From a phage: DNA of 64,000 bases. Position 1 is the first letter of the stretch; the number at the start of each line of letters is the position of its first letter. The notes under the pieces are model-generated. The model was given only the letters and a program-made list of their open reading frames with translations. It was not told where the DNA came from and did no database searches. Location: sequence record PZ452579.1; one strand, written 5' to 3'. The position numbers were made by a program, and so were the translations under genes. Of the stretch, positions 4,802 through 54,151 are shown piece by piece.

Positions 4802-6615
4802 TGATGCTTAACCCTATGCATGATTTCTTTATTTTTACCGAGATTAAATCCGCGTTCGTTCGGATTTCCCAAATAACCGCATGTTCTTCTTATGGTGTTC
4901 ATCTTTTTAGGATCAGTTTCTCCGCAAACTGAACAAACAAATCCGTTTTCAGTAGGAGTCATTTCATGGGTACTTCCACATGTAAAACATTTATCTACCG
5001 GCATGTTAACACCAAAATAATCTAAATGTTGTGCAGCATAATCCCATACGGCCTCAAGACCTTTTAAGTTATTTTTCATATCGGGAAGTTCAACATAAGA
5101 AATGTGACCGCCGGTCGCAATGAAATGATATGGTGCTTCACGAGAAATCTTTTCAAACGGAGTAATATTTTCTTCTACTGAAACATGGAAACTGTTAGTG
5201 TACCAGCCTTTATCGGTAACATCCTTTACACTTCCATATTTTTCTGTATCGAGTTTACAGAAGCGATAACAAAGGTTTTCAGCAGGAGTCGAATATAAAC
5301 TAAAAGCAAATCCAGTTCTTTCAGTCCACTGTTTAAGATGAGCATTCATTTTAGTTAAAATTTCTCGTCCAATATCACGTCCGACAAGAATATTCAATTC
5401 GTGAATACCAATGTATCCCAAAGACACTGAACTTCTACCGTTTTTAAATAACTCAATTATGTCGTCATCAGGTTTAAGACGGACCCCGAATGCACCTTCT
5501 TGGTAAAGAATAGGAGCAACAGTAGCTTTAACTCCTTTTAGGGAACTAATTCTACACATCAAAGCTTCAAAACACAAATCCATTCGTTCATTGAATAATT
5601 CAACAAATTTCTGTTCATTGAACTGTGTTCCAATATAAGAATCTAACGCGATGCGAGGAAGATTCAGTGTTACAACACCAAGATTATTACGTCCATCAAG
5701 AATTTCATTACCAGTCGAATCTTTCCATACGCTCAAGAAACTACGGCAACCCATTGGAGAAACAGGAACAGATGAACCAGTGATAGCTTTATTGTTCTTA
5801 GCTGAAATAATATCAGGATACATTCTTTTGCTTGCGCACTCTAGAGCAAGCTGTTTAATATCATAGTTCGGATCATCTTTATAAAGATTAACACCTTCTT
5901 CAACAAACATAACAAGTTTAGGAAAAATAGGAGTTATTCCATCACGACCAAGACCTTTAACACGATTTTTCAGAATTGCTTTCTGAATCATTCGTTCAGT
6001 CCAGTCAGTTCCCGTACCAAATGTAATTGTTACAAAAGGAGTCTGTCCGTTTGAACTAAAGAGAGTATTTACTTCATATTCATAAGCTTGGAATGCATCG
6101 TATACGTCTTTTTCTGTTTTAGATTGAGCATAATTCAACGTATCAGCGATTTGCCATTTTTCTGCATCCTCAATATGTTTTGCATAGGTGCGTTTAACAT
6201 AAGGAGAAAGTACTTTATCTACATTAGCAAAAGTCGTTCCGCCGTATTGGTGAGAAGCAACCTGTGCAGTAATTTGTGCCATAATTGCAGTAGCAACACC
6301 AATCGATTTAGGCGTTTCAATCTGCGCATTACCTAGCTTAAATCCGTTTTCAAGCATTCCTTTTAAATCTACTAAACAGCAATTAGTAAATGGAAGAGCA
6401 GGGGAATAATCAATATCATGGAAATGGATAATTCCGCTTTCATGCGCTTTCATAATAAAAGACGGGACCATATTTTTGGCAATGTGTTTAGACACAATAC
6501 CAGCCATAAGGTCCCGTTGAGTTGGAAAAACACGAGAATCTTTATTAGCATTCTCGTTTAAAAGGTCTTTATTAGTTTTATGAATCAATCCTTCAATTTC
6601 TTTTTCAATTGTCAT
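4798..6615 (-). CDS. nrdD: anaerobic ribonucleoside-triphosphate reductase
   Basis: 605 aa; C-terminal glycyl radical motif RRTCGYLG and CxxC...CxxC zinc site; uninterrupted ORF. Confidence 0.95.
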   Translation of the reverse strand: MTIEKEIEGLIHKTNKDLLNENANKDSRVFPTQRDLMAGIVSKHIAKNMVPSFIMKAHESGIIHFHDIDYSPALPFTNCCLVDLKGMLENGFKLGNAQIETPKSIGVATAIMAQITAQVASHQYGGTTFANVDKVLSPYVKRTYAKHIEDAEKWQIADTLNYAQSKTEKDVYDAFQAYEYEVNTLFSSNGQTPFVTITFGTGTDWTERMIQKAILKNRVKGLGRDGITPIFPKLVMFVEEGVNLYKDDPNYDIKQLALECASKRMYPDIISAKNNKAITGSSVPVSPMGCRSFLSVWKDSTGNEILDGRNNLGVVTLNLPRIALDSYIGTQFNEQKFVELFNERMDLCFEALMCRISSLKGVKATVAPILYQEGAFGVRLKPDDDIIELFKNGRSSVSLGYIGIHELNILVGRDIGREILTKMNAHLKQWTERTGFAFSLYSTPAENLCYRFCKLDTEKYGSVKDVTDKGWYTNSFHVSVEENITPFEKISREAPYHFIATGGHISYVELPDMKNNLKGLEAVWDYAAQHLDYFGVNMPVDKCFTCGSTHEMTPTENGFVCSVCGETDPKKMNTIRRTCGYLGNPNERGFNLGKNKEIMHRVKHQ

Positions 6616-7295: not shown

Positions 7296-7423
7296 AATAA
7301 TCTCTTCCCATTTCCATATCAATTAATTCATTTATTGAAGGTTCATCATAACACGTTTCTTCGTCGTTGTAAACTGTTTCGACGTCTGGCTCGACTGTCT
7401 CCCATCGAGCCGAATACCATGGT

Positions 7424-7759
7424 TTAACCGCGGAGCTTATTGAGCTCTTCATAATCAACCCAGGATTCTAGCCCAGATGGCAAATCAGATTCAACATTCC
7501 ACAGAAGCTCTTCGATGGCTTGTAGGCGATTATATTCTTCAACAGTAATAGTAACCATTGTTTCAGGCTTTTTAACCATCATGTCATTCATCAGAATGTA
7601 CAGGTCTTCACAAACAGCTGGGTCGTCCCATGTCCATATTTCAGCATCTCTAACCAATGAAGTCGGAATCGAATTTAAAACTTCAAGCTTAGTAGGAGCG
7701 TCAGGGCCGAGAAGAGTTGCTACAAATTTATATGCTTTGGCGAAATCAATATTGTTCAT
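7424..7759 (-). CDS. hypothetical acidic protein (111 aa)
   Basis: ORF; ATGA overlap with nrdC stop. Confidence 0.5.
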   Translation of the reverse strand: MNNIDFAKAYKFVATLLGPDAPTKLEVLNSIPTSLVRDAEIWTWDDPAVCEDLYILMNDMMVKKPETMVTITVEEYNRLQAIEELLWNVESDLPSGLESWVDYEELNKLRG

Positions 7760-22339: not shown

Positions 22340-22879
22340 TCATTGCATTCCAATCACAAAAAATTGAGGACGAGCATTACCGCCGATGCAATATTTGCTT
22401 TTGCAGCAGTGCTGTAATGTTTTAATGTGGACGTTGTAAATCTTATCCATATCAGGAGCTTTAATAGGCTCGTCAATTATATACAGAATACGAGAAAGCG
22501 TTAATCCACGGAATTTAGAACCTTCATTGCCAATAAAACTACGAACAGAATCAGTAAATAAACGGAATCGAATATCATCGCTAGAATAACGAGAAAATTC
22601 TTTTTCAATGTTGCCAGCAGAAATTTTAGCATAAGCTGAAGTATTAGAAAGAACAATAACTGTTCCGCCATCATACAACCAATTAGCAGCAAAGTTAGTC
22701 ACAGCAATTGATTTACCGGATTGACGTCCACCGTCTAAACGAAGTGTACAGTACTGTTTGAGTACGTCTTCAAACGGTGGGATATAACCATTCTTACAAA
22801 TTTCTTCTACTCTAGCATCAGAATGGTGTGTAAAAGCATTCATCAGGGATAGATAAGGACCAGTTAAAAATGTTCTCAT
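22340..22879 (-). CDS. P-loop-containing protein (GGRQSGKS)
   Basis: Walker-A-like motif; 179 aa; weak SD. Confidence 0.5.
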   Translation of the reverse strand: MRTFLTGPYLSLMNAFTHHSDARVEEICKNGYIPPFEDVLKQYCTLRLDGGRQSGKSIAVTNFAANWLYDGGTVIVLSNTSAYAKISAGNIEKEFSRYSSDDIRFRLFTDSVRSFIGNEGSKFRGLTLSRILYIIDEPIKAPDMDKIYNVHIKTLQHCCKSKYCIGGNARPQFFVIGMQ

Positions 22880-23052
22880 TTAGTTTCTCTTTTAGGTTGG
22901 GGCCATTCCGTGGCACATGTTAGGTCCTTCGACTCGCTATGTAAACCCATTACCGCATTGCGCTCGACCTTATTACAGGTTGGAAAAGGTACATCACTCA
23001 GAGGACTCGACGTTCATGAGGAGAGGTTGCGTTTCCCTTTATTAGGCAAGAA

Positions 23053-23382
23053 TTATACTCTAGGCTTTTGAGCTTGTTTGGTATTGGATTCCCATGCGGC
23101 TTTGGTAATTTTGTTAGCGGCATAACCAAAGGCATTAGATAGAACACCTTTAGAGTTGAATACATCCAATCCAATAAGTACACCGGCTGTGTTAAATTTA
23201 GGAGCAAAGTACGCATTAGTTTTAGAAAGAGCTTTTTTCAATTCAGGGTCTTGAACCAAGCCATCAAAAACGCCTTTACTATTTACTTTATATGTTACTT
23301 TGGGATTTTTACCTTCTTCGATAGCAGCTTTCTGTTCCGCAGATAATGTAACTTCAGTGATAAACTCTTGATACGTTTTCAT
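23053..23382 (-). CDS. internal-protein-like, capsid-targeting leader MKTYQEFITE
   Basis: N-terminal 10 aa match T4 IP capsid-targeting sequence; SD AGGA. Confidence 0.7.
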   Translation of the reverse strand: MKTYQEFITEVTLSAEQKAAIEEGKNPKVTYKVNSKGVFDGLVQDPELKKALSKTNAYFAPKFNTAGVLIGLDVFNSKGVLSNAFGYAANKITKAAWESNTKQAQKPRV

Positions 23383-23407
23383 TTTGTTCCTATTGTTTTA
23401 ATTTATG

Positions 23408-23722
23408 TTATTCTTTAGGGAAGTTTTTAGAGTATGCGTCATAAAGTTTATTACCGATGCGACGGAAGACTTTAGCTGCAAAACGGTTTTCAGGGTTTTT
23501 AATCATGATTTGCATCATGTAAGTTCCTGCATCCGAAAGAGCTTCTTCGTAGTACCCATTAATTTCTTTAAGAGTCCTACGTTTACCACCAGGACCATCA
23601 ACAGTAATTTTCCATTTACCTGTAGAAGTGCGGCTCGGTGGCTCAACTTGTTCAATCCAAATATAACCACCTTCAACGCGTTGGTTGGCGGATTCTGCAA
23701 TAAATTCTTTATATGTTTTCAT
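23408..23722 (-). CDS. internal-protein-like, leader MKTYKEFIAE
   Basis: Leader matches T4 IP consensus; 104 aa. Confidence 0.7.
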   Translation of the reverse strand: MKTYKEFIAESANQRVEGGYIWIEQVEPPSRTSTGKWKITVDGPGGKRRTLKEINGYYEEALSDAGTYMMQIMIKNPENRFAAKVFRRIGNKLYDAYSKNFPKE

Positions 23723-23753
23723 TTTTTGTTTCCTTGTTTGTTTTGATAGAGTA

Positions 23754-23783
23754 ATTATACCATATTAATACTTAAGCGTAAAC
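23754..23783 (-). promoter_or_regulatory. early promoter cassette (-35 GTTTAC, 18 nt, -10 TATAAT)
   Basis: Minus strand upstream of 23408..23722. Confidence 0.55.
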
Positions 23784-23786
23784 AAT

Positions 23787-24047
23787 TTAAGCTTTACCGC
23801 CAGAAATAATTCCGAAGTTGTTAAAATCGTATCCAATATCGTCAACATCTACTTTAGGACTTACTACAACATAAGCAATTTCACTACGTTTTGCATAGGT
23901 GTTGATTTCTTTACCATCGCCACCTAAGAAAGAATACCCATTACGTTTTAATGAGCCAAAGTCTTCCGCATCACCAATGAAAGCTTTAACTTTAAATTTG
24001 GGGTCTTTGGCATCTGCTTCAGCTATAAATTCTTGATACATTTTCAT
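23787..24047 (-). CDS. internal-protein-like, leader MKMYQEFIAE
   Basis: Leader matches T4 IP consensus; 86 aa. Confidence 0.7.
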   Translation of the reverse strand: MKMYQEFIAEADAKDPKFKVKAFIGDAEDFGSLKRNGYSFLGGDGKEINTYAKRSEIAYVVVSPKVDVDDIGYDFNNFGIISGGKA

Positions 24048-24053
24048 TTTTCC

Positions 24054-24467
24054 TTAGTAAATTGATTTACCATAGTATTTGTACCAAGTCGGACGTTGAG
24101 CAATTTTTTCATCTAAGCGTGCTTGACTTATCGCAATGGACGCTTCGGACGGGACGTAATTATTACGAAATTCTACAGGGATGTCGGAAATATCCTGGAC
24201 AGTCGTGTCCTTGATTTTGAAACCACGTTTCAAACATTCGGCGATTAGCTCGATTTGTCGTAAACGTAAAAATTCAAGTTTGTCGTAAAAGAATGTTACG
24301 TGACCTGTGCCTAAGATAAATGTTGGAGAGATTTTAAAATCCTTTACACGTTTACCGTTTTGAACATGTTTACGGACTGCACCAAATACGCGTGGTAATT
24401 CACGATACTCAGCCATAAGATGTTGGTCGGTCAGTTCAGAAACAAGTGTTAAATTGATACGGGTCAT
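24054..24467 (-). CDS. denV: endonuclease V (pyrimidine dimer DNA glycosylase)
   Basis: 137 aa from [33 protein letters not shown]...; matches recalled T4 DenV. Confidence 0.9.
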
Positions 24468-24494
24468 AATTTCCTCCAAGTAGTTGATGAATGT

Positions 24495-24525: not shown

Positions 24526-24807
24526 CTATTTTTCTGAAGCGCCTGAAATATATTTTTCAAGTCGTTGCTTCATTAGCGAGCCGTTCTTAGCGATTTCTTC
24601 CGGTTTATCGCACATACGTAACAAGGCTTCAAGCTTAGCGATATCGCTGGTACGTTCAAATTTGCGAGTATCTATCTTACTAGCAAGTTCAGAAATACGT
24701 GCTAATAGACTTTCGGCTTCAACCAAAGCTGCACCTAGCTTAGTTGCAAATGTGTCAGTAGCTTCGTTAAGAATAGATTCTGATAAAAATTCACTATATG
24801 TTTTCAT
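24526..24807 (-). CDS. internal-protein-like, leader [10 protein letters not shown]
   Basis: ATG overlaps lysozyme stop (ATGA); leader matches IP consensus. Confidence 0.65.
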
Positions 24808-25292
24808 ATATACGCTTTCCAAGTTCCTGTTTTAAATGTTGAGATTACGCGTTTCGCGCGATTAGGTGTCTGACGATACCATTTAGATTGGGCTAGATTT
24901 ACTGCCGCCTCGTCCCAACGTTTCTGTTGAAGCATACGAAGAGAATTAGTAAAACCGGCGACGCCTGCTACACCCATTTGGAAGACCATATTGACCAATG
25001 CACATCGACGAACCGCATCTAAAGAATCATATACCGGTTTAAGTTTAGCATTACCCAAGATTCCGCGAACGGCTTTATCAACGTCTTCATTAAATAGCTT
25101 TTCAGCCTCATCAAGGGTAATTGTACCGTTGCATTTACGTCCGATCATTCTGTCAAGTTCAGCTTTAGCTACGGCTAAAGACGGGTTCTTTGTTACTAAA
25201 TGGCCTATGCCAATCGTCCAAAAGCCTTCAGTGTCTTTGTATAAAGTCAGTCTAAGACCTTCGTCATTACGAAGCATTTCAAATATATTCAT
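24804..25292 (-). CDS. e: lysozyme (endolysin)
   Basis: 162 aa from [31 protein letters not shown]...; matches recalled T4 lysozyme; SD GGAGG. Confidence 0.9.
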
Positions 25293-25326
25293 AATACCTC
25301 CCACGTTTATAGGAGGTATTTATTAC

Positions 25327-26487: not shown

Positions 26488-27173
26488 TACCAGCCTTCCA
26501 TAGGGAATTCCAGATAAACTTGAGCGTTGACACGAATTTCATTGGTAATCTTTTTAACTCGGTCTGTATTACGAGATACACGCCCGAACCAACGCCATCC
26601 ATTACTAATTGCACGAGAACCAGTGTGCCATGTTTGCCAATCAAACTGAAGAAGAGTACGGTCTGGAGCTTCCCATTTCTCTAGTTCGCCTTTTTCGATT
26701 TTTTCGAGGACTTCTTTGTGCCACTGACGATAGATAAGTTCGCCATCAGGAATCTGACTGAACTCTGCAGTTCCTGTTGCAAAATGAGTAGGACACACAT
26801 CAGCGTTAACAAGACCAAGAATATGTTCAGAATGGTAACGAGGGTTGTCATAATCAGGTTGTCCTGCAGTAATAAAGTGTTGACCAACCGGAATATCCGG
26901 GCGTGGTACATCGTCATGGTGATATCCAGGAATAGCAGGGTACCAACCAGGCATCAGCATGTGGACTCGTGAATCAAATACAACCTGGTCGGTGTTCCAA
27001 TCATCCGGCAAGTTCATGATAAAGCTACGAGTAATTGGGCCGCCATTATCAAAAGCAAAATTCAAATCGCAGTTAAAGAACATAGGCTCGTTTTTAATCT
27101 GGTCGTTTTTAATCGCATGAGCAAAACCACCTACTGCACGAGCTTGACTATTAAACACTTTAGAACTATTCAT
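26487..27173 (-). CDS. hypothetical protein (228 aa) with His/Asp-rich motifs
   Basis: PGYHHDD...YHSEH segments; function not assignable by eye. Confidence 0.55.
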   Translation of the reverse strand: MNSSKVFNSQARAVGGFAHAIKNDQIKNEPMFFNCDLNFAFDNGGPITRSFIMNLPDDWNTDQVVFDSRVHMLMPGWYPAIPGYHHDDVPRPDIPVGQHFITAGQPDYDNPRYHSEHILGLVNADVCPTHFATGTAEFSQIPDGELIYRQWHKEVLEKIEKGELEKWEAPDRTLLQFDWQTWHTGSRAISNGWRWFGRVSRNTDRVKKITNEIRVNAQVYLEFPMEGW

Positions 27174-33342: not shown

Positions 33343-33432
33343 TTAAAATCCTTGAAATAATTTATCGGTTGGTTATTAATTATTTATTACTTTGTTATTA
33401 TCAGTAACAGCATTCTCTGAGTGATTCAAACT

Positions 33433-33459
33433 AAAAAGCCCCAACCTTTCGGAAGGGGC
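33433..33459 (-). terminator. rho-independent terminator (identical 27-mer)
   Basis: Third copy of AAAAAGCCCCAACCTTTCGGAAGGGGC. Confidence 0.6.
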
Positions 33460-33771
33460 TAAGCCTTGCGGCAACCTTGTCGGGGTTCCACCTGCTAAGG
33501 CAAGTGTTTGTACGAAACGCCGGGATTCGAACCCGGTTATTAAGTAGTTGACGCTACTCAATATTTTTAAAAGGCCATATCTCGACCATATCCGAACGTT
33601 CCGTCAAAAACGCTACTCGGCTTACGGCAAAGATATTTCCTCGAATCGATAATTCTGTGCGCCGTTTCTGCTGTGATGTAATGGGATATTAACAAATCGT
33701 AAAGATTTATTAAGACCAGTCCTTACTCAGGGAACATCAGTCCGACGACTTACCGGTAGCGACCCGGCTTC
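33460..33771 (-). ncRNA. candidate small stable RNA with tRNA-like T-arm
   Basis: No credible ORF; CCGGG-TTCGAAT-CCCGG T-arm-like element at 33516..33536 (minus sense); no canonical cloverleaf found. Confidence 0.25.
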
Positions 33772-34134: not shown

Positions 34135-34211
<77 letters not shown>

Positions 34212-34217
34212 AATATA

Positions 34218-34291
34218 TGACCCAGACCAGATTCGAACTGGTAACCTTTCCCTTATGAGGGGACTGCTGCTAACCATTGAGCTACAGGGCC
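34218..34291 (-). tRNA. tRNA with CAU anticodon (Ile2-like or Met)
   Basis: 5' end and T-arm resemble E. coli tRNA-Ile2; anticodon loop CTCATAA; imperfect acceptor and D stems. Confidence 0.55.
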
Positions 34292-52604: not shown

Positions 52605-54151
52605 GTAACAATACATATCAACACGTTTCGAACGAATCAGTATATGTTGAATTTGACCCGGTAGGGTCAAATTTTGATAGTTCAATAACCAATGTCCAGG
52701 CAGCCTTAGCCTCAATTAGCGCATATGGTGTTAAAGGTGTTCCGGACGCAAGCGAAGCAGAAAAAGGTGTAATTCAATTAGCGACAGAACAAGAAGTTCT
52801 TGATGGATTTAATAGTACTAAAGCCGTTACACCCGCCACATTAAATGCAAGACTTCAGTATCCAAATGCGTCAGAAACACAATACGGCGTAACTAAATAT
52901 GCAACACAAGAGGAGGCCATTGCTGGCACTTTAGACACTGTTTCTATTACTCCGCTTAAATTAAACCAAACTATTGATAACACGTTCTCTACTCGTTATT
53001 CAACAGAAACAACTAACGGTGTTATTAAAATTGCAACTCAAACCGCTGCACTTGCCGGGTCTGATGACACCACAGCAATGACTCCGCTTAAAACGCAGCA
53101 ATTAGCAATAAAATTAATTTCTCAAATAGCTCCTAATAACGACCCGGCTTCAGAATCTATTACCGGTGTTGTGCGTTTAGCTACGGTGGCTCAAACACGT
53201 CAAGGAACTCTTCGCGAAGGATATGCAATTTCCCCGTATACCTTTATGAATTCTGTTGCAACACAAGAATATAAAGGTGTTATACGTATAGGAACACAAG
53301 CGGAAATTAATAGTAATTTGGGAGATGTTGCTGTAACAGGTGAAACGCTAAATGGTAGAGGAGCTACCGGTTCTATGCGTGGAGTCGTAAAATTAACGAC
53401 GCAGGCCGGTGTTGCACCCGAAGGCGATAGCTCTGGAGCATTAGCATGGAACGCAGATGTAATTAATACACGCGGTGGACAAACTATTAATGGTTCTTTA
53501 AATTTAGATCACCTCACCGCAAATGGAATTTGGTCGCGTGGCGGAATGTGGAAAAACGGTGACCAGCCAGTTGCAACAGAGAGATATGCATCTGAACGTG
53601 TTCCTGTTGGAACAATTCAAATGTTCGCAGGTGATAGCGCTCCTCCAGGTTGGGTTTTATGTCATGGCGGGACCATTTCTGGAGACCAATTTCCGGACTA
53701 TCGAAATGTGGTTGGAACAAGATTTGGCGGTGATTGGAATAATCCTGGAATTCCGGATATGCGCGGCCTTTTTGTTAGAGGAGCTGGTACTGGCAGTCAT
53801 ATTTTAAATAATCGTGGCCAAGACGGCTATGGAAAGGATAGATTAGGTGTAGGATGTGACGGCATGCATGTTGGTGGTGTCCAAGCACAACAAATGTCAT
53901 ATCATAAACATGCCGGTGGATGGGGCGAATACTCACGTCATGAGGCACCGTTCGGAGCATCCGTATATCAAGGTTATTTGGGTACTAGAAAATACTCTGA
54001 TTGGGATAACGCATCATATTTCACAAATGACGGCTTCGAATTAGGTGGTCACCGCGACGCAACAGGCACTCTTAACCGTGAAGGACTTATCGGATATGAG
54101 ACTCGTCCATGGAATATATCTTTAAATTATATTATTAAAGTCCATTACTAA
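52601..54151 (+). CDS. 12: short tail fiber gp12
   Basis: 516 aa; synteny and N-terminal similarity to T4 gp12. Confidence 0.9.

Follow-up and report, generated by a model that had tools for sequence, protein, structure and literature searches.

A conserved pseudoknotted RNA element upstream of vs.8 in T4-like phages appears to represent a previously unrecognised RNA family of virulent phages

A structured RNA element of approximately 139 nucleotides (nt) was identified in the 64,000-nt stretch of phage DNA analysed in this work (PZ452579.1, the whole of which is referred to as the window). The window is that of an RB69-like (Mosigvirus) T4-type phage, with best matches that are 97-100% identical. 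The element lies in the 173-nt gap at 22880-23052, between vs.8 (22340-22879, minus strand) and a leader-bearing, internal-protein-like gene (23053-23382, minus strand). It is very probably a functional structured RNA, and it appears to belong to a previously unrecognised RNA family that is widespread in virulent phages. On balance, we consider that the element acts as RNA and not as a peptide or a DNA site. We also lean towards reading it as an RNA module that is autonomous, has a binding pocket or a catalytic junction, and doubles as the vs.8 leader in T4-like phages. Few viruses have been studied as thoroughly as T4 and RB69, yet the element of approximately 140 nt is unannotated in every record that was inspected.

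Structure of the element

The covariation counts were obtained from two alignments. Alignment A2 consists of 41 distinct core sequences from all lineages and alignment A3 consists of 24 RB69-type sequences. The patterns with which the sequences were retrieved left the covarying columns free. In A2, the core has the order P-c 5' strand, one free base, H1 (ACCU, a loop of 4-6 nt, and AGGU), CGA, H2, GGUAANG, and P-c 3' strand. The P-c pairs are CG 31, UA 5, GC 3, AU 1, and GU 1 at one position and CG 29, GC 8, AU 3, and GU 1 at the other, and the variable H2 pair is CG 36, GC 3, and UA 2, all without mismatch. Over the core, 87.5% of the cells are paired. The covariation score is 0.262 against 0.076 in shuffled alignments (0 of 500 as high), and sliding the partners by 1-3 columns leaves only 26-43% pairing. 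The H1 stem is invariant and thus uninformative on covariation. In locus L158, H1 has a shortened stem capped by a GAAA tetraloop in place of the hexaloop, which is what a hairpin would be expected to show. Across phage families there is almost no variation in the junction strands (N, CGA, and GGUAANG) or in the H1 stem. When applied to the mixed alignment, RNAalifold independently predicted H1 and H2 and no other helix.

The model of the T4-like element (A3) comprises nine helices including two pseudoknots, with 93.7% of the cells paired, none of the 500 shuffles as high, and 21-42% pairing in the slid controls. PK2 is the strongest single structural feature. All four Watson-Crick types are found at its middle pair (CG 13, AU 5, GC 3, and UA 3), and the next pair is GC 16 and CG 8, with no mismatch at either. 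PK1 exhibits stepwise covariation from GUAA/UUAC (L050) through GUGA/UUAC (L143) to GUGA/UCAC (L079). The equivalents of P-a are GGGAA/UUCCC in T4-type phages and GGGAG/CUCCC in L035. T4-type phages have a simpler 5' hairpin, CCUCAU/AUGAGG with GGGAA/UUCCC, that follows the same overall plan. A correlated one-base deletion of both P-b strands (CUCA/UGAG to CUA/UAG) is found in FBB1 and L038, and P-e has a compensatory change in FBB1 (GCC/GGC to GUC/GAC). P-d, which is specific to T4-like phages, encloses a conserved A(U/A)GGA motif; one of its pairs is UA 21 and AU 3, and its fifth pair is A-U in L008 and U-A in VR26. P-e ends 22 nt before the vs.8 AUG. The helix counts were targeted, in place of an all-against-all covariation scan of the T4-like alignment that was too noisy owing to phylogenetic structure and to misalignment of the T4-type and RB69-type 5' domains.

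The covariance model of the core (R1) has a single match in the window, and the next best score is 10 bits. Across the examined loci, 58 matches of 36-74 bits were taken as genuine, including second copies in two loci (L004 and L024). A first-pass annotation of the window had seen short hairpins in this segment and had offered a structured leader or a regulatory RNA as explanations, to be checked by covariation in related phages. The covarying base pairs and the strong conservation of the element are in agreement with those explanations. The wording of short hairpins understates a structure that is pseudoknotted; simple folding without pseudoknots scores worse than shuffled sequence and lends the hairpins no support. 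The coordinates of all features are shown in Table 1.

Table 1. Features of the element and of its surroundings in the window, and pairings analogous to PK2 in phages that are not T4-like.
Feature	Position in window	Strand	Evidence or remark
Whole structured RNA element, ~139 nt, first base of P-a to last base of P-e	22902..23040	-	T4-like alignments A1 and A3
P-a 5' strand AAAGG, pairs with CCUUU 22985-22989	23036..23040	-	inner pair GC 16, CG 7, AU 1, no mismatch
P-a 3' strand CCUUU	22985..22989	-	covariation counts (A3)
PK2 5' strand CGC in internal loop of 5' domain, partner GCG ~95 nt away	23029..23031	-	100% paired
PK2 3' strand GCG	22935..22937	-	covariation counts (A3)
P-b (CUCA/UGAG) around small apical hairpin (GAAC...GUCC)	22997..23020	-	98.8% paired
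Conserved core, three-way junction	22938..22987	-	R1 63 bits, E = 2.6e-17
Core P-c, UCC with GG(U)	22982-22984 with 22945-22947	-	covarying
Core H1, ACCU/AGGU, loop GUAAUA	22977-22980 / 22967-22970	-	
Core junction CGA	22964-22966	-	
Core H2 hairpin	22955-22963	-	
Core junction GGUAAUG	22948-22954	-	
PK1 3' strand UUAC, pairs with GUAA in H1 loop (22973-22976)	22941..22944	-	100% paired in 24 T4-like sequences
P-d short helix, AU 22939-22940 with AU 22917-18; third pair mismatched in window	22917..22940	-	76% paired
P-e hairpin GCC-ACGGAAU-GGC, GGA in loop	22902..22914	-	93% paired; T4-like phages only
24-codon open reading frame MGLHSESKDLTCATEWPQPKRETK, judged spurious	22876..22950	-	TGA overlaps vs.8 ATG as ATGA
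vs.8, P-loop protein, directly downstream of element	22340..22879	-	PHROG 1488, category unknown function
Nearest upstream early-type promoter-like site, TTTACG-17-TGnTATAAT	23754..23782	-	consensus scan only
L033, 5' segment/tail segment GGGUA/UACCC			by eye
L030, 5' segment/tail segment CCAG/CUGG			by eye
rV5-like, 5' segment/tail segment GAGG/CCUC			by eye
N4-like, 5' segment/tail segment CGGA/UCCG			by eye
L130, 5' segment/tail segment AACCA/UGGUU			by eye
L057, 5' segment/tail segment AUCGU/ACGAU			by eye
L029 and L158, 5' segment/tail segment ACCAA/UUGGU			by eye
L148 and L172, 5' segment/tail segment CAGA/UCUG			by eye

Conservation and distribution

The element was found in 992 phage records using a sensitive BLAST search with the gap, and vs.8 was found in 1010 records using a protein search; the lack of conservation that the first-pass annotation had allowed for was not observed. 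In Klebsiella and JS10-type phages, the element retains 82-88% nucleotide identity while the Vs.8 protein is only 35-39% identical, and the non-coding gap is therefore under tighter constraint than vs.8. T4 also carries the element (approximately 64,790-64,935), where it is hidden within a 219-residue annotation of vs.8.

Searches with the string CCTGTAANAAGGTCGAG and with a looser pattern brought up viral contigs outside the T4-like group that have the core. Based on BLAST and annotation, these carriers belong to Vequintavirus (rV5-like), Schitoviridae (the N4-like Klebsiella phage KpCHEMY26), Vibrio-phage-related contigs, and several uncultured lineages. Only the core is alike in them; the flanking helices differ in sequence and are equivalent in position. 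The matches of the looser pattern, AAGGTCGAG-N7-11-CGGTAANG, were mostly due to chance or to coding sequence (for example, one gene of phages of approximately 43 kb) and were filtered by context and R1. The pattern ACCTATAANAAGGTCGAG gave only chance matches beyond two known loci.

Scanning 185,579 bacterial and archaeal species genomes with the pattern gave 3 matches, compared with approximately 5 expected by chance according to our own estimate. All three are on contigs of metagenome-assembled genomes, in unrelated sequence without the flanking features of the family. The BLAST search for an origin gave no match to the element in 5,426 complete E. coli genomes. The core thus occurs in at least four unrelated groups of virulent phages, with hosts in Enterobacterales and Vibrio, and is absent from the bacterial genomes searched. 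Because it is also better conserved than the neighbouring proteins, this distribution points to a phage-specific RNA function under strong selection. The earlier suggestion that the segment is a remnant of foreign DNA does not agree with an element that is kept in approximately 990 phage genomes, outconserves Vs.8, and has no bacterial counterpart in the genomes searched.

A few phages have more than one copy. Klebsiella phage vB_Kpl_K65_evo2 (L004) has two copies at 1485-1634 and 2089-2190: one is of the RB69 type and follows an internal-protein gene, and the other is of the T4 type, scores lower (GGCAAUG junction, 37 bits), and precedes vs.8. A T4-like viral contig (L024) has two tandem copies at 5089-5250 (64.5 and 36.3 bits). 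No second copy was found in the window by BLAST or by the covariance model. Seven other viral contigs of approximately 2-3.3 kb (L068, L087, L092, L093, L116, L124, and L153) share AAGGTCGAGGAAGACGTAACGGTAACG, preceded by helices that covary between the contigs. This group is below the R1 threshold and probably represents an unrelated structured RNA, possibly from small RNA phages.

Coding potential

The first-pass annotation had reported a minus-strand open reading frame (ORF) of 23 codons coupled to the P-loop gene. The ORF is present, has 24 codons, and overlaps the vs.8 start as described (Table 1). The coupling was not borne out. The AUG of this mini-ORF is the last three bases of the conserved RNA junction GGUAAUG, and most relatives have AGG or AAG at that position (GGUAAGG or GGUAAAG). 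The open frame in relatives is of 7-35 codons with differing ends, and genomes that are nearly identical differ by a one-base indel in the H2 loop. The mini-ORF is judged to be a chance reading frame inside the RNA because its start codon is missing in most relatives and its length and frame are not conserved.

The same applies to the longer frames. The window has plus-strand ORFs of 42 and 53 residues over the element, and the record of vB_Kpl_K65_evo2 annotates an antisense hypothetical protein of 49 residues over copy 1, which is probably spurious. One-base and 10-12-base indels and frame shifts among close relatives interrupt every ORF on both strands. The substitutions in the element are compensatory rather than at synonymous sites, and no small ORF exhibits a conserved start, frame, and length or a synonymous-site bias. 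As judged from these comparisons, the region behaves as non-coding on both strands.

The T4 reference annotation of vs.8 (NC_000866 64253-64912; 3254-3913 of the examined T4 locus, L003) encodes 219 residues from a start codon that is 120 nt further upstream, and its first 40 codons overlie the element. That frame is not conserved in relatives. The element bases shared by T4 and the window are read in different frames, a 10-nt deletion breaks the long frame in T4-type relatives, and an in-frame TAA immediately precedes the vs.8 ATG in the window. The T4 annotation is probably over-long, and the 179-residue start of other records is probably correct.

Genomic context

The T4-like copies are directly 5' of, and co-oriented with, a start codon in 36 of 36 distinct sequences. 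The gene is vs.8, or the internal-protein gene in the case of copy 1 in vB_Kpl_K65_evo2. These copies begin at or just after the upstream stop codon and end approximately 20-45 nt before the next start codon.

The arrangements in phages that are not T4-like look like those of a small RNA gene. In rV5-like and N4-like phages and in several uncultured contigs, the element occupies unannotated gaps no more than a few hundred bases from tRNA arrays, with which it shares its orientation. Two Vibrio-phage-like loci (L148 and L172) have a sigma-70-type promoter approximately 45 nt upstream and an intrinsic terminator downstream, which would yield an RNA of approximately 125-140 nt. Two further loci (L130 and L057) have a strong terminator within approximately 15-30 nt after the element. 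In KpCHEMY26 (L160 2368-3372), the element is located in a gap of approximately 1 kb without annotated genes, downstream of a tRNA array and approximately 640 nt from the next annotated gene. The element there (approximately 115 nt) is closed by an 8-bp helix, GUUGUGAC/GUCACAAC, and is flanked by long repeated hairpins (AAGAGCAYTG...CANTGCTCTT). Several processed small RNAs may be made from that gap. The downstream genes are mutually unrelated and include vs.8, an internal-protein gene, tRNA arrays, a tail-like protein, an HNH endonuclease, and unknowns.

Other sequences were observed around these copies. A second GTTGTG-type start follows in the KpCHEMY26 gap. In rV5-like phages (L042 8460-8640; also L039, L047, and L128), the 25-nt sequence CCCTTAGAGGGCTTGATAGTGCACC and a close variant of it are found on both sides of the element, and promoter-like strings are found upstream (TGCTATACT) and downstream (TTGACA-17-TAAACT). 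The conserved string CGACTAAACAAACAATTACCCGACAAGGAATTGTAGG is located upstream of the element in L130 (7873-7915) and in L057, which are unrelated-looking contigs, and may be a phage-specific promoter. The only tRNA genes of the window are tRNA-Arg(TCT) and tRNA-Met(CAT) at 34135-34291 on the minus strand, 11 kb from the element. The same tRNA pair adjoins the element in N4-like and rV5-like phages.

All genes near the gap are on the minus strand. Lysozyme gene e (24804-25304) is followed by an internal-protein-like gene, denV (24054-24479), three more small genes with an MKTYQEFI capsid-targeting leader, the gap, and vs.8. Four small minus-strand genes in this block (23053-24047 and 24526-24822), with denV interleaved, start with an MKTY(Q/K/S)EF leader, which we take to be typical of T4 internal proteins. 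Pfam and PHROGs searches on the neighbouring genes gave no functional link to the element. A scan found no terminator-like site between the promoter-like site at 23782-23754 and the element. The transcript carrying the element therefore probably starts at that site, and the gap is most likely transcribed within an early polycistronic mRNA.

The guanine and cytosine (GC) content of 22885-23050 is 48.2%, compared with the window mean of 37.4% (standard deviation 4.0; z = 2.7), and only 0.44% of 166-nt segments are as GC-rich. The island that had been proposed from the sequence is hence outside the compositional norm of the window. The GC content of the full gap is 46.8%. The same level as in the island is also reached at 53289-54080, 33394-33633, 26827-27056, and 7354-7530.

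Proposed function and alternative explanations

In the mechanism that we favour, the element would be read from the minus strand in an early polycistronic transcript that runs from the internal-protein genes into vs.8. It folds into a compact double-pseudoknotted body in which PK2 ties the 5' hairpin domain (P-a and P-b) to the tail that follows the three-way junction (P-c, H1, and H2). The T4-like phages add PK1, between the H1 loop and UUAC, and a 3' extension (P-d and P-e) that ends approximately 20 nt before the vs.8 ribosome-binding site. The invariant junction, positioned by covarying helices, is read as a pocket or an active site because the invariant parts are junction strands and not loops, while the surrounding helices vary with pairing kept. 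The junction would either recognise a conserved host component or small molecule or act as a catalyst. In other phages the element would be made as a separate small RNA, and in T4-like phages the folding of the vs.8 leader would probably also set vs.8 translation or transcript processing. An autonomous module is preferred because of this pocket-like signature together with the stand-alone units in other phages.

Several points weigh against the proposal. Transcription, RNA ends, and stability are predictions from sequence, as are autonomy and biochemical activity, and any ligand, partner, or cleavage site is hypothetical. The T4-like copies have no promoter or terminator of their own in the scan and always abut a start codon, an arrangement that a purely cis-acting leader would explain just as well. 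The evidence for the fold is comparative throughout, and the minimum free energy (MFE) of the nested fold of a 191-nt gap is poorer than that of shuffled sequence (z = +2.3), a comparison that is misleading since the real fold is pseudoknotted. The shuffle statistics overstate independence where most sequences are related T4-like ones, and the cross-family alignment A2 is the fairer test. The complementarities between loop or flank and tail that we take as PK2 analogues in the other phages (Table 1) agree from lineage to lineage but were read by eye and not counted on an alignment. The counts of G-U against A-C pairs leave the strand undecided, and the strand was assigned from co-orientation with genes, tRNAs, promoters, and terminators.

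The main rival is a purely cis-acting leader, either riboswitch-like or a protein-binding operator, in which the core is the sensor and the variable 3' part is the expression platform that gates the downstream gene (in T4-like phages P-d and P-e with the Shine-Dalgarno sequence, and in the others an intrinsic terminator). We regard it as rather unlikely. The constant position of the T4-like copies before a start codon agrees with such a leader, as does the order of element, terminator, and gene in L057, L130, L148, and L172. Riboswitches classically combine a conserved core with 3' ends that differ between lineages, and the element is a conserved, covarying aptamer-like structure upstream of a gene. 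A GGA in a hairpin loop resembles the sites of CsrA, and the GGA in the P-e loop and a second GGA upstream may be compared with such sites. However, the downstream genes are unrelated to each other and form no consistent functional class, the next annotated gene is distant in KpCHEMY26, and no riboswitch family of Rfam matches. An anti-terminator overlap between core and terminator strands, including P-c and PK2, was not found by inspection, and no systematic search for it was run.

The element could also be a small catalytic RNA of a new class, self-cleaving or otherwise, that cuts the early polycistronic transcript or a tRNA precursor at a defined site. Hammerhead, twister, pistol, hatchet, and HDV-like theta ribozymes are similarly distributed in phages. 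The size of 95-140 nt, the compact pseudoknotted fold, the invariant junction nucleotides, and the scattered occurrence in unrelated phages near tRNA genes, with occasional tandem copies and no consistent gene partner, would suit a ribozyme. Against this, no ribozyme model matches even at E values up to 10 on short stretches, the junction-length order (1, 3, 7) is unlike the hammerhead core, and CUGANGA and GAAA are absent as read from the sequence. Both catalysis and a cleavage site are hypothetical. A new self-cleaving ribozyme is a serious possibility, and as the account of the element we judge it distinctly improbable.

The DNA-level and trivial explanations are a vs.8 promoter, a recombination cassette of the PeSL type, a small protein gene, a longer Vs.8 N-terminus, and decaying foreign DNA. 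They are very improbable and are effectively excluded. A weak early-type promoter match (TTTACA-17-TAACAT) is found inside the element at 22945-22917, but T4-type copies lack the TTTACA box, whose UUAC instead covaries with the H1 loop. The protein readings have the 219-residue T4 annotation, the antisense 49-residue ORF of one Klebsiella phage record, and the plus-strand ORFs of the window in their favour, and they are opposed by the broken frames, the compensatory substitutions, and the in-frame TAA before vs.8. A PeSL cassette does not agree with an element that is single-copy in the window, lacks a terminator-like stem, and is shared with families other than T4, and the genomes searched offer no bacterial source of foreign DNA.

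More tentatively, the element may be the founding member of a new functional RNA class specific to virulent phages, as a new ribozyme or as an aptamer for a host protein or small molecule; this is possible but less likely than not. An example would be an RNA sponge or decoy against host defence. The gene block around the element carries counter-defence genes (the internal proteins and vs.4/Acb2), and in other phages the element is near tRNA clusters. If the reading is right, the element would have been unnoticed in T4 for decades because it is covered by the vs.8 annotation. Phage biology would gain a new RNA class whether the element is a sensor, a catalyst, or a decoy. The minimum outcome is that the vs.8 annotation is corrected and several spurious small ORFs are removed from phage records.

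Comparison with known RNAs

The whole window was compared with Rfam 15, and only two tRNAs (34.1-34.3 kb) are at or above the gathering threshold. Nothing relevant was obtained at E values up to 10 on 551 nt around the element, and scans of seven non-T4 loci and of short rV5-like and L130 stretches gave no family match. A weak match to the rnk leader in L130, of 26.9 bits where the cut-off is 55, coincides with the terminator and was disregarded. ARAGORN and the Rfam tRNA model found no tRNA or tmRNA at the site. Likenesses to GGUAAUGG of the hepatitis delta virus (HDV) ribozyme, CCCAAGC of twister, GCGGUAAU of the 16S rRNA 530 loop, the 23S H44 hexaloop GUAAUA, UGUAAU of the signal recognition particle Alu domain, and the tRNA-Tyr anticodon loop CUGUAAA were dropped because each is of 6-9 bases and is variable within the family or in a different structural context. 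No description of the element or of its core sequence was found in the searchable literature, the coverage of which is incomplete. A paper on RegB and S1 concerns the denV Shine-Dalgarno site and not the element (PMC1702504).

PeSLs are short multi-copy motifs with a terminator-like stem-loop and an early promoter (TTTACW-N17-TAYWAT) in hyperplastic regions of T4-like genomes (Arbiol 2010; Comeau 2014, PMC4122927). The element is likewise a conserved intergenic motif in a hyperplastic region, and the RB69-type copies hold a TTTACA-N17-TAACAT string. It differs from PeSLs in its length of approximately 140 nt, in being essentially single-copy (one copy in the 64-kb window), in lacking a conserved terminator stem or promoter, in its RNA covariation, and in its presence in families other than T4. 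No terminator-like site was found in it, and the TAACAT string is absent from T4-type copies.

The stable RNAs C and D of T4 (species 1 and 2; rnaC and rnaD) are small structured phage RNAs beside tRNA genes, and the element has that location in other phage families. However, the T4 locus of the element is at 64.8 kb and those of the two RNAs are at 70.9-71.2 kb, no sequence similarity was seen on inspection, and R1 has no match in the T4 tRNA region (L053). The put RNA of HK022 consists of two simple stem-loops and is a processive antitermination RNA. It may be compared with the arrangement in L148, L172, L130, and L057, since put is likewise a structured RNA ahead of phage genes, with a promoter on one side and an intrinsic terminator on the other. 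Sequence and architecture are not similar, and T4-like copies have no following terminator.

The closest parallels are with two kinds of structured RNA. The self-cleaving ribozymes of phages (hammerhead, twister, twister-sister, pistol, hatchet, and HDV-like theta) are similar to the element in size, pseudoknotted fold, conserved junction, patchy spread, tRNA proximity, and occasional tandem copies, and differ from it in covariance-model match, hammerhead core sequences, and junction-length order. Riboswitches differ from the element in that it has no Rfam 15 match at the thresholds tried, its downstream genes have nothing in common, and some of its copies stand alone. The element shares with riboswitches a lineage-specific 3' end (a hairpin by the Shine-Dalgarno sequence or an intrinsic terminator) and a position on the 5' side of genes. 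It also shares with riboswitch aptamers that combine a three-way junction and a pseudoknot, and with the orphan candidates, invariant junction nucleotides that are framed by covarying helices and a long-range pseudoknot that closes the fold.

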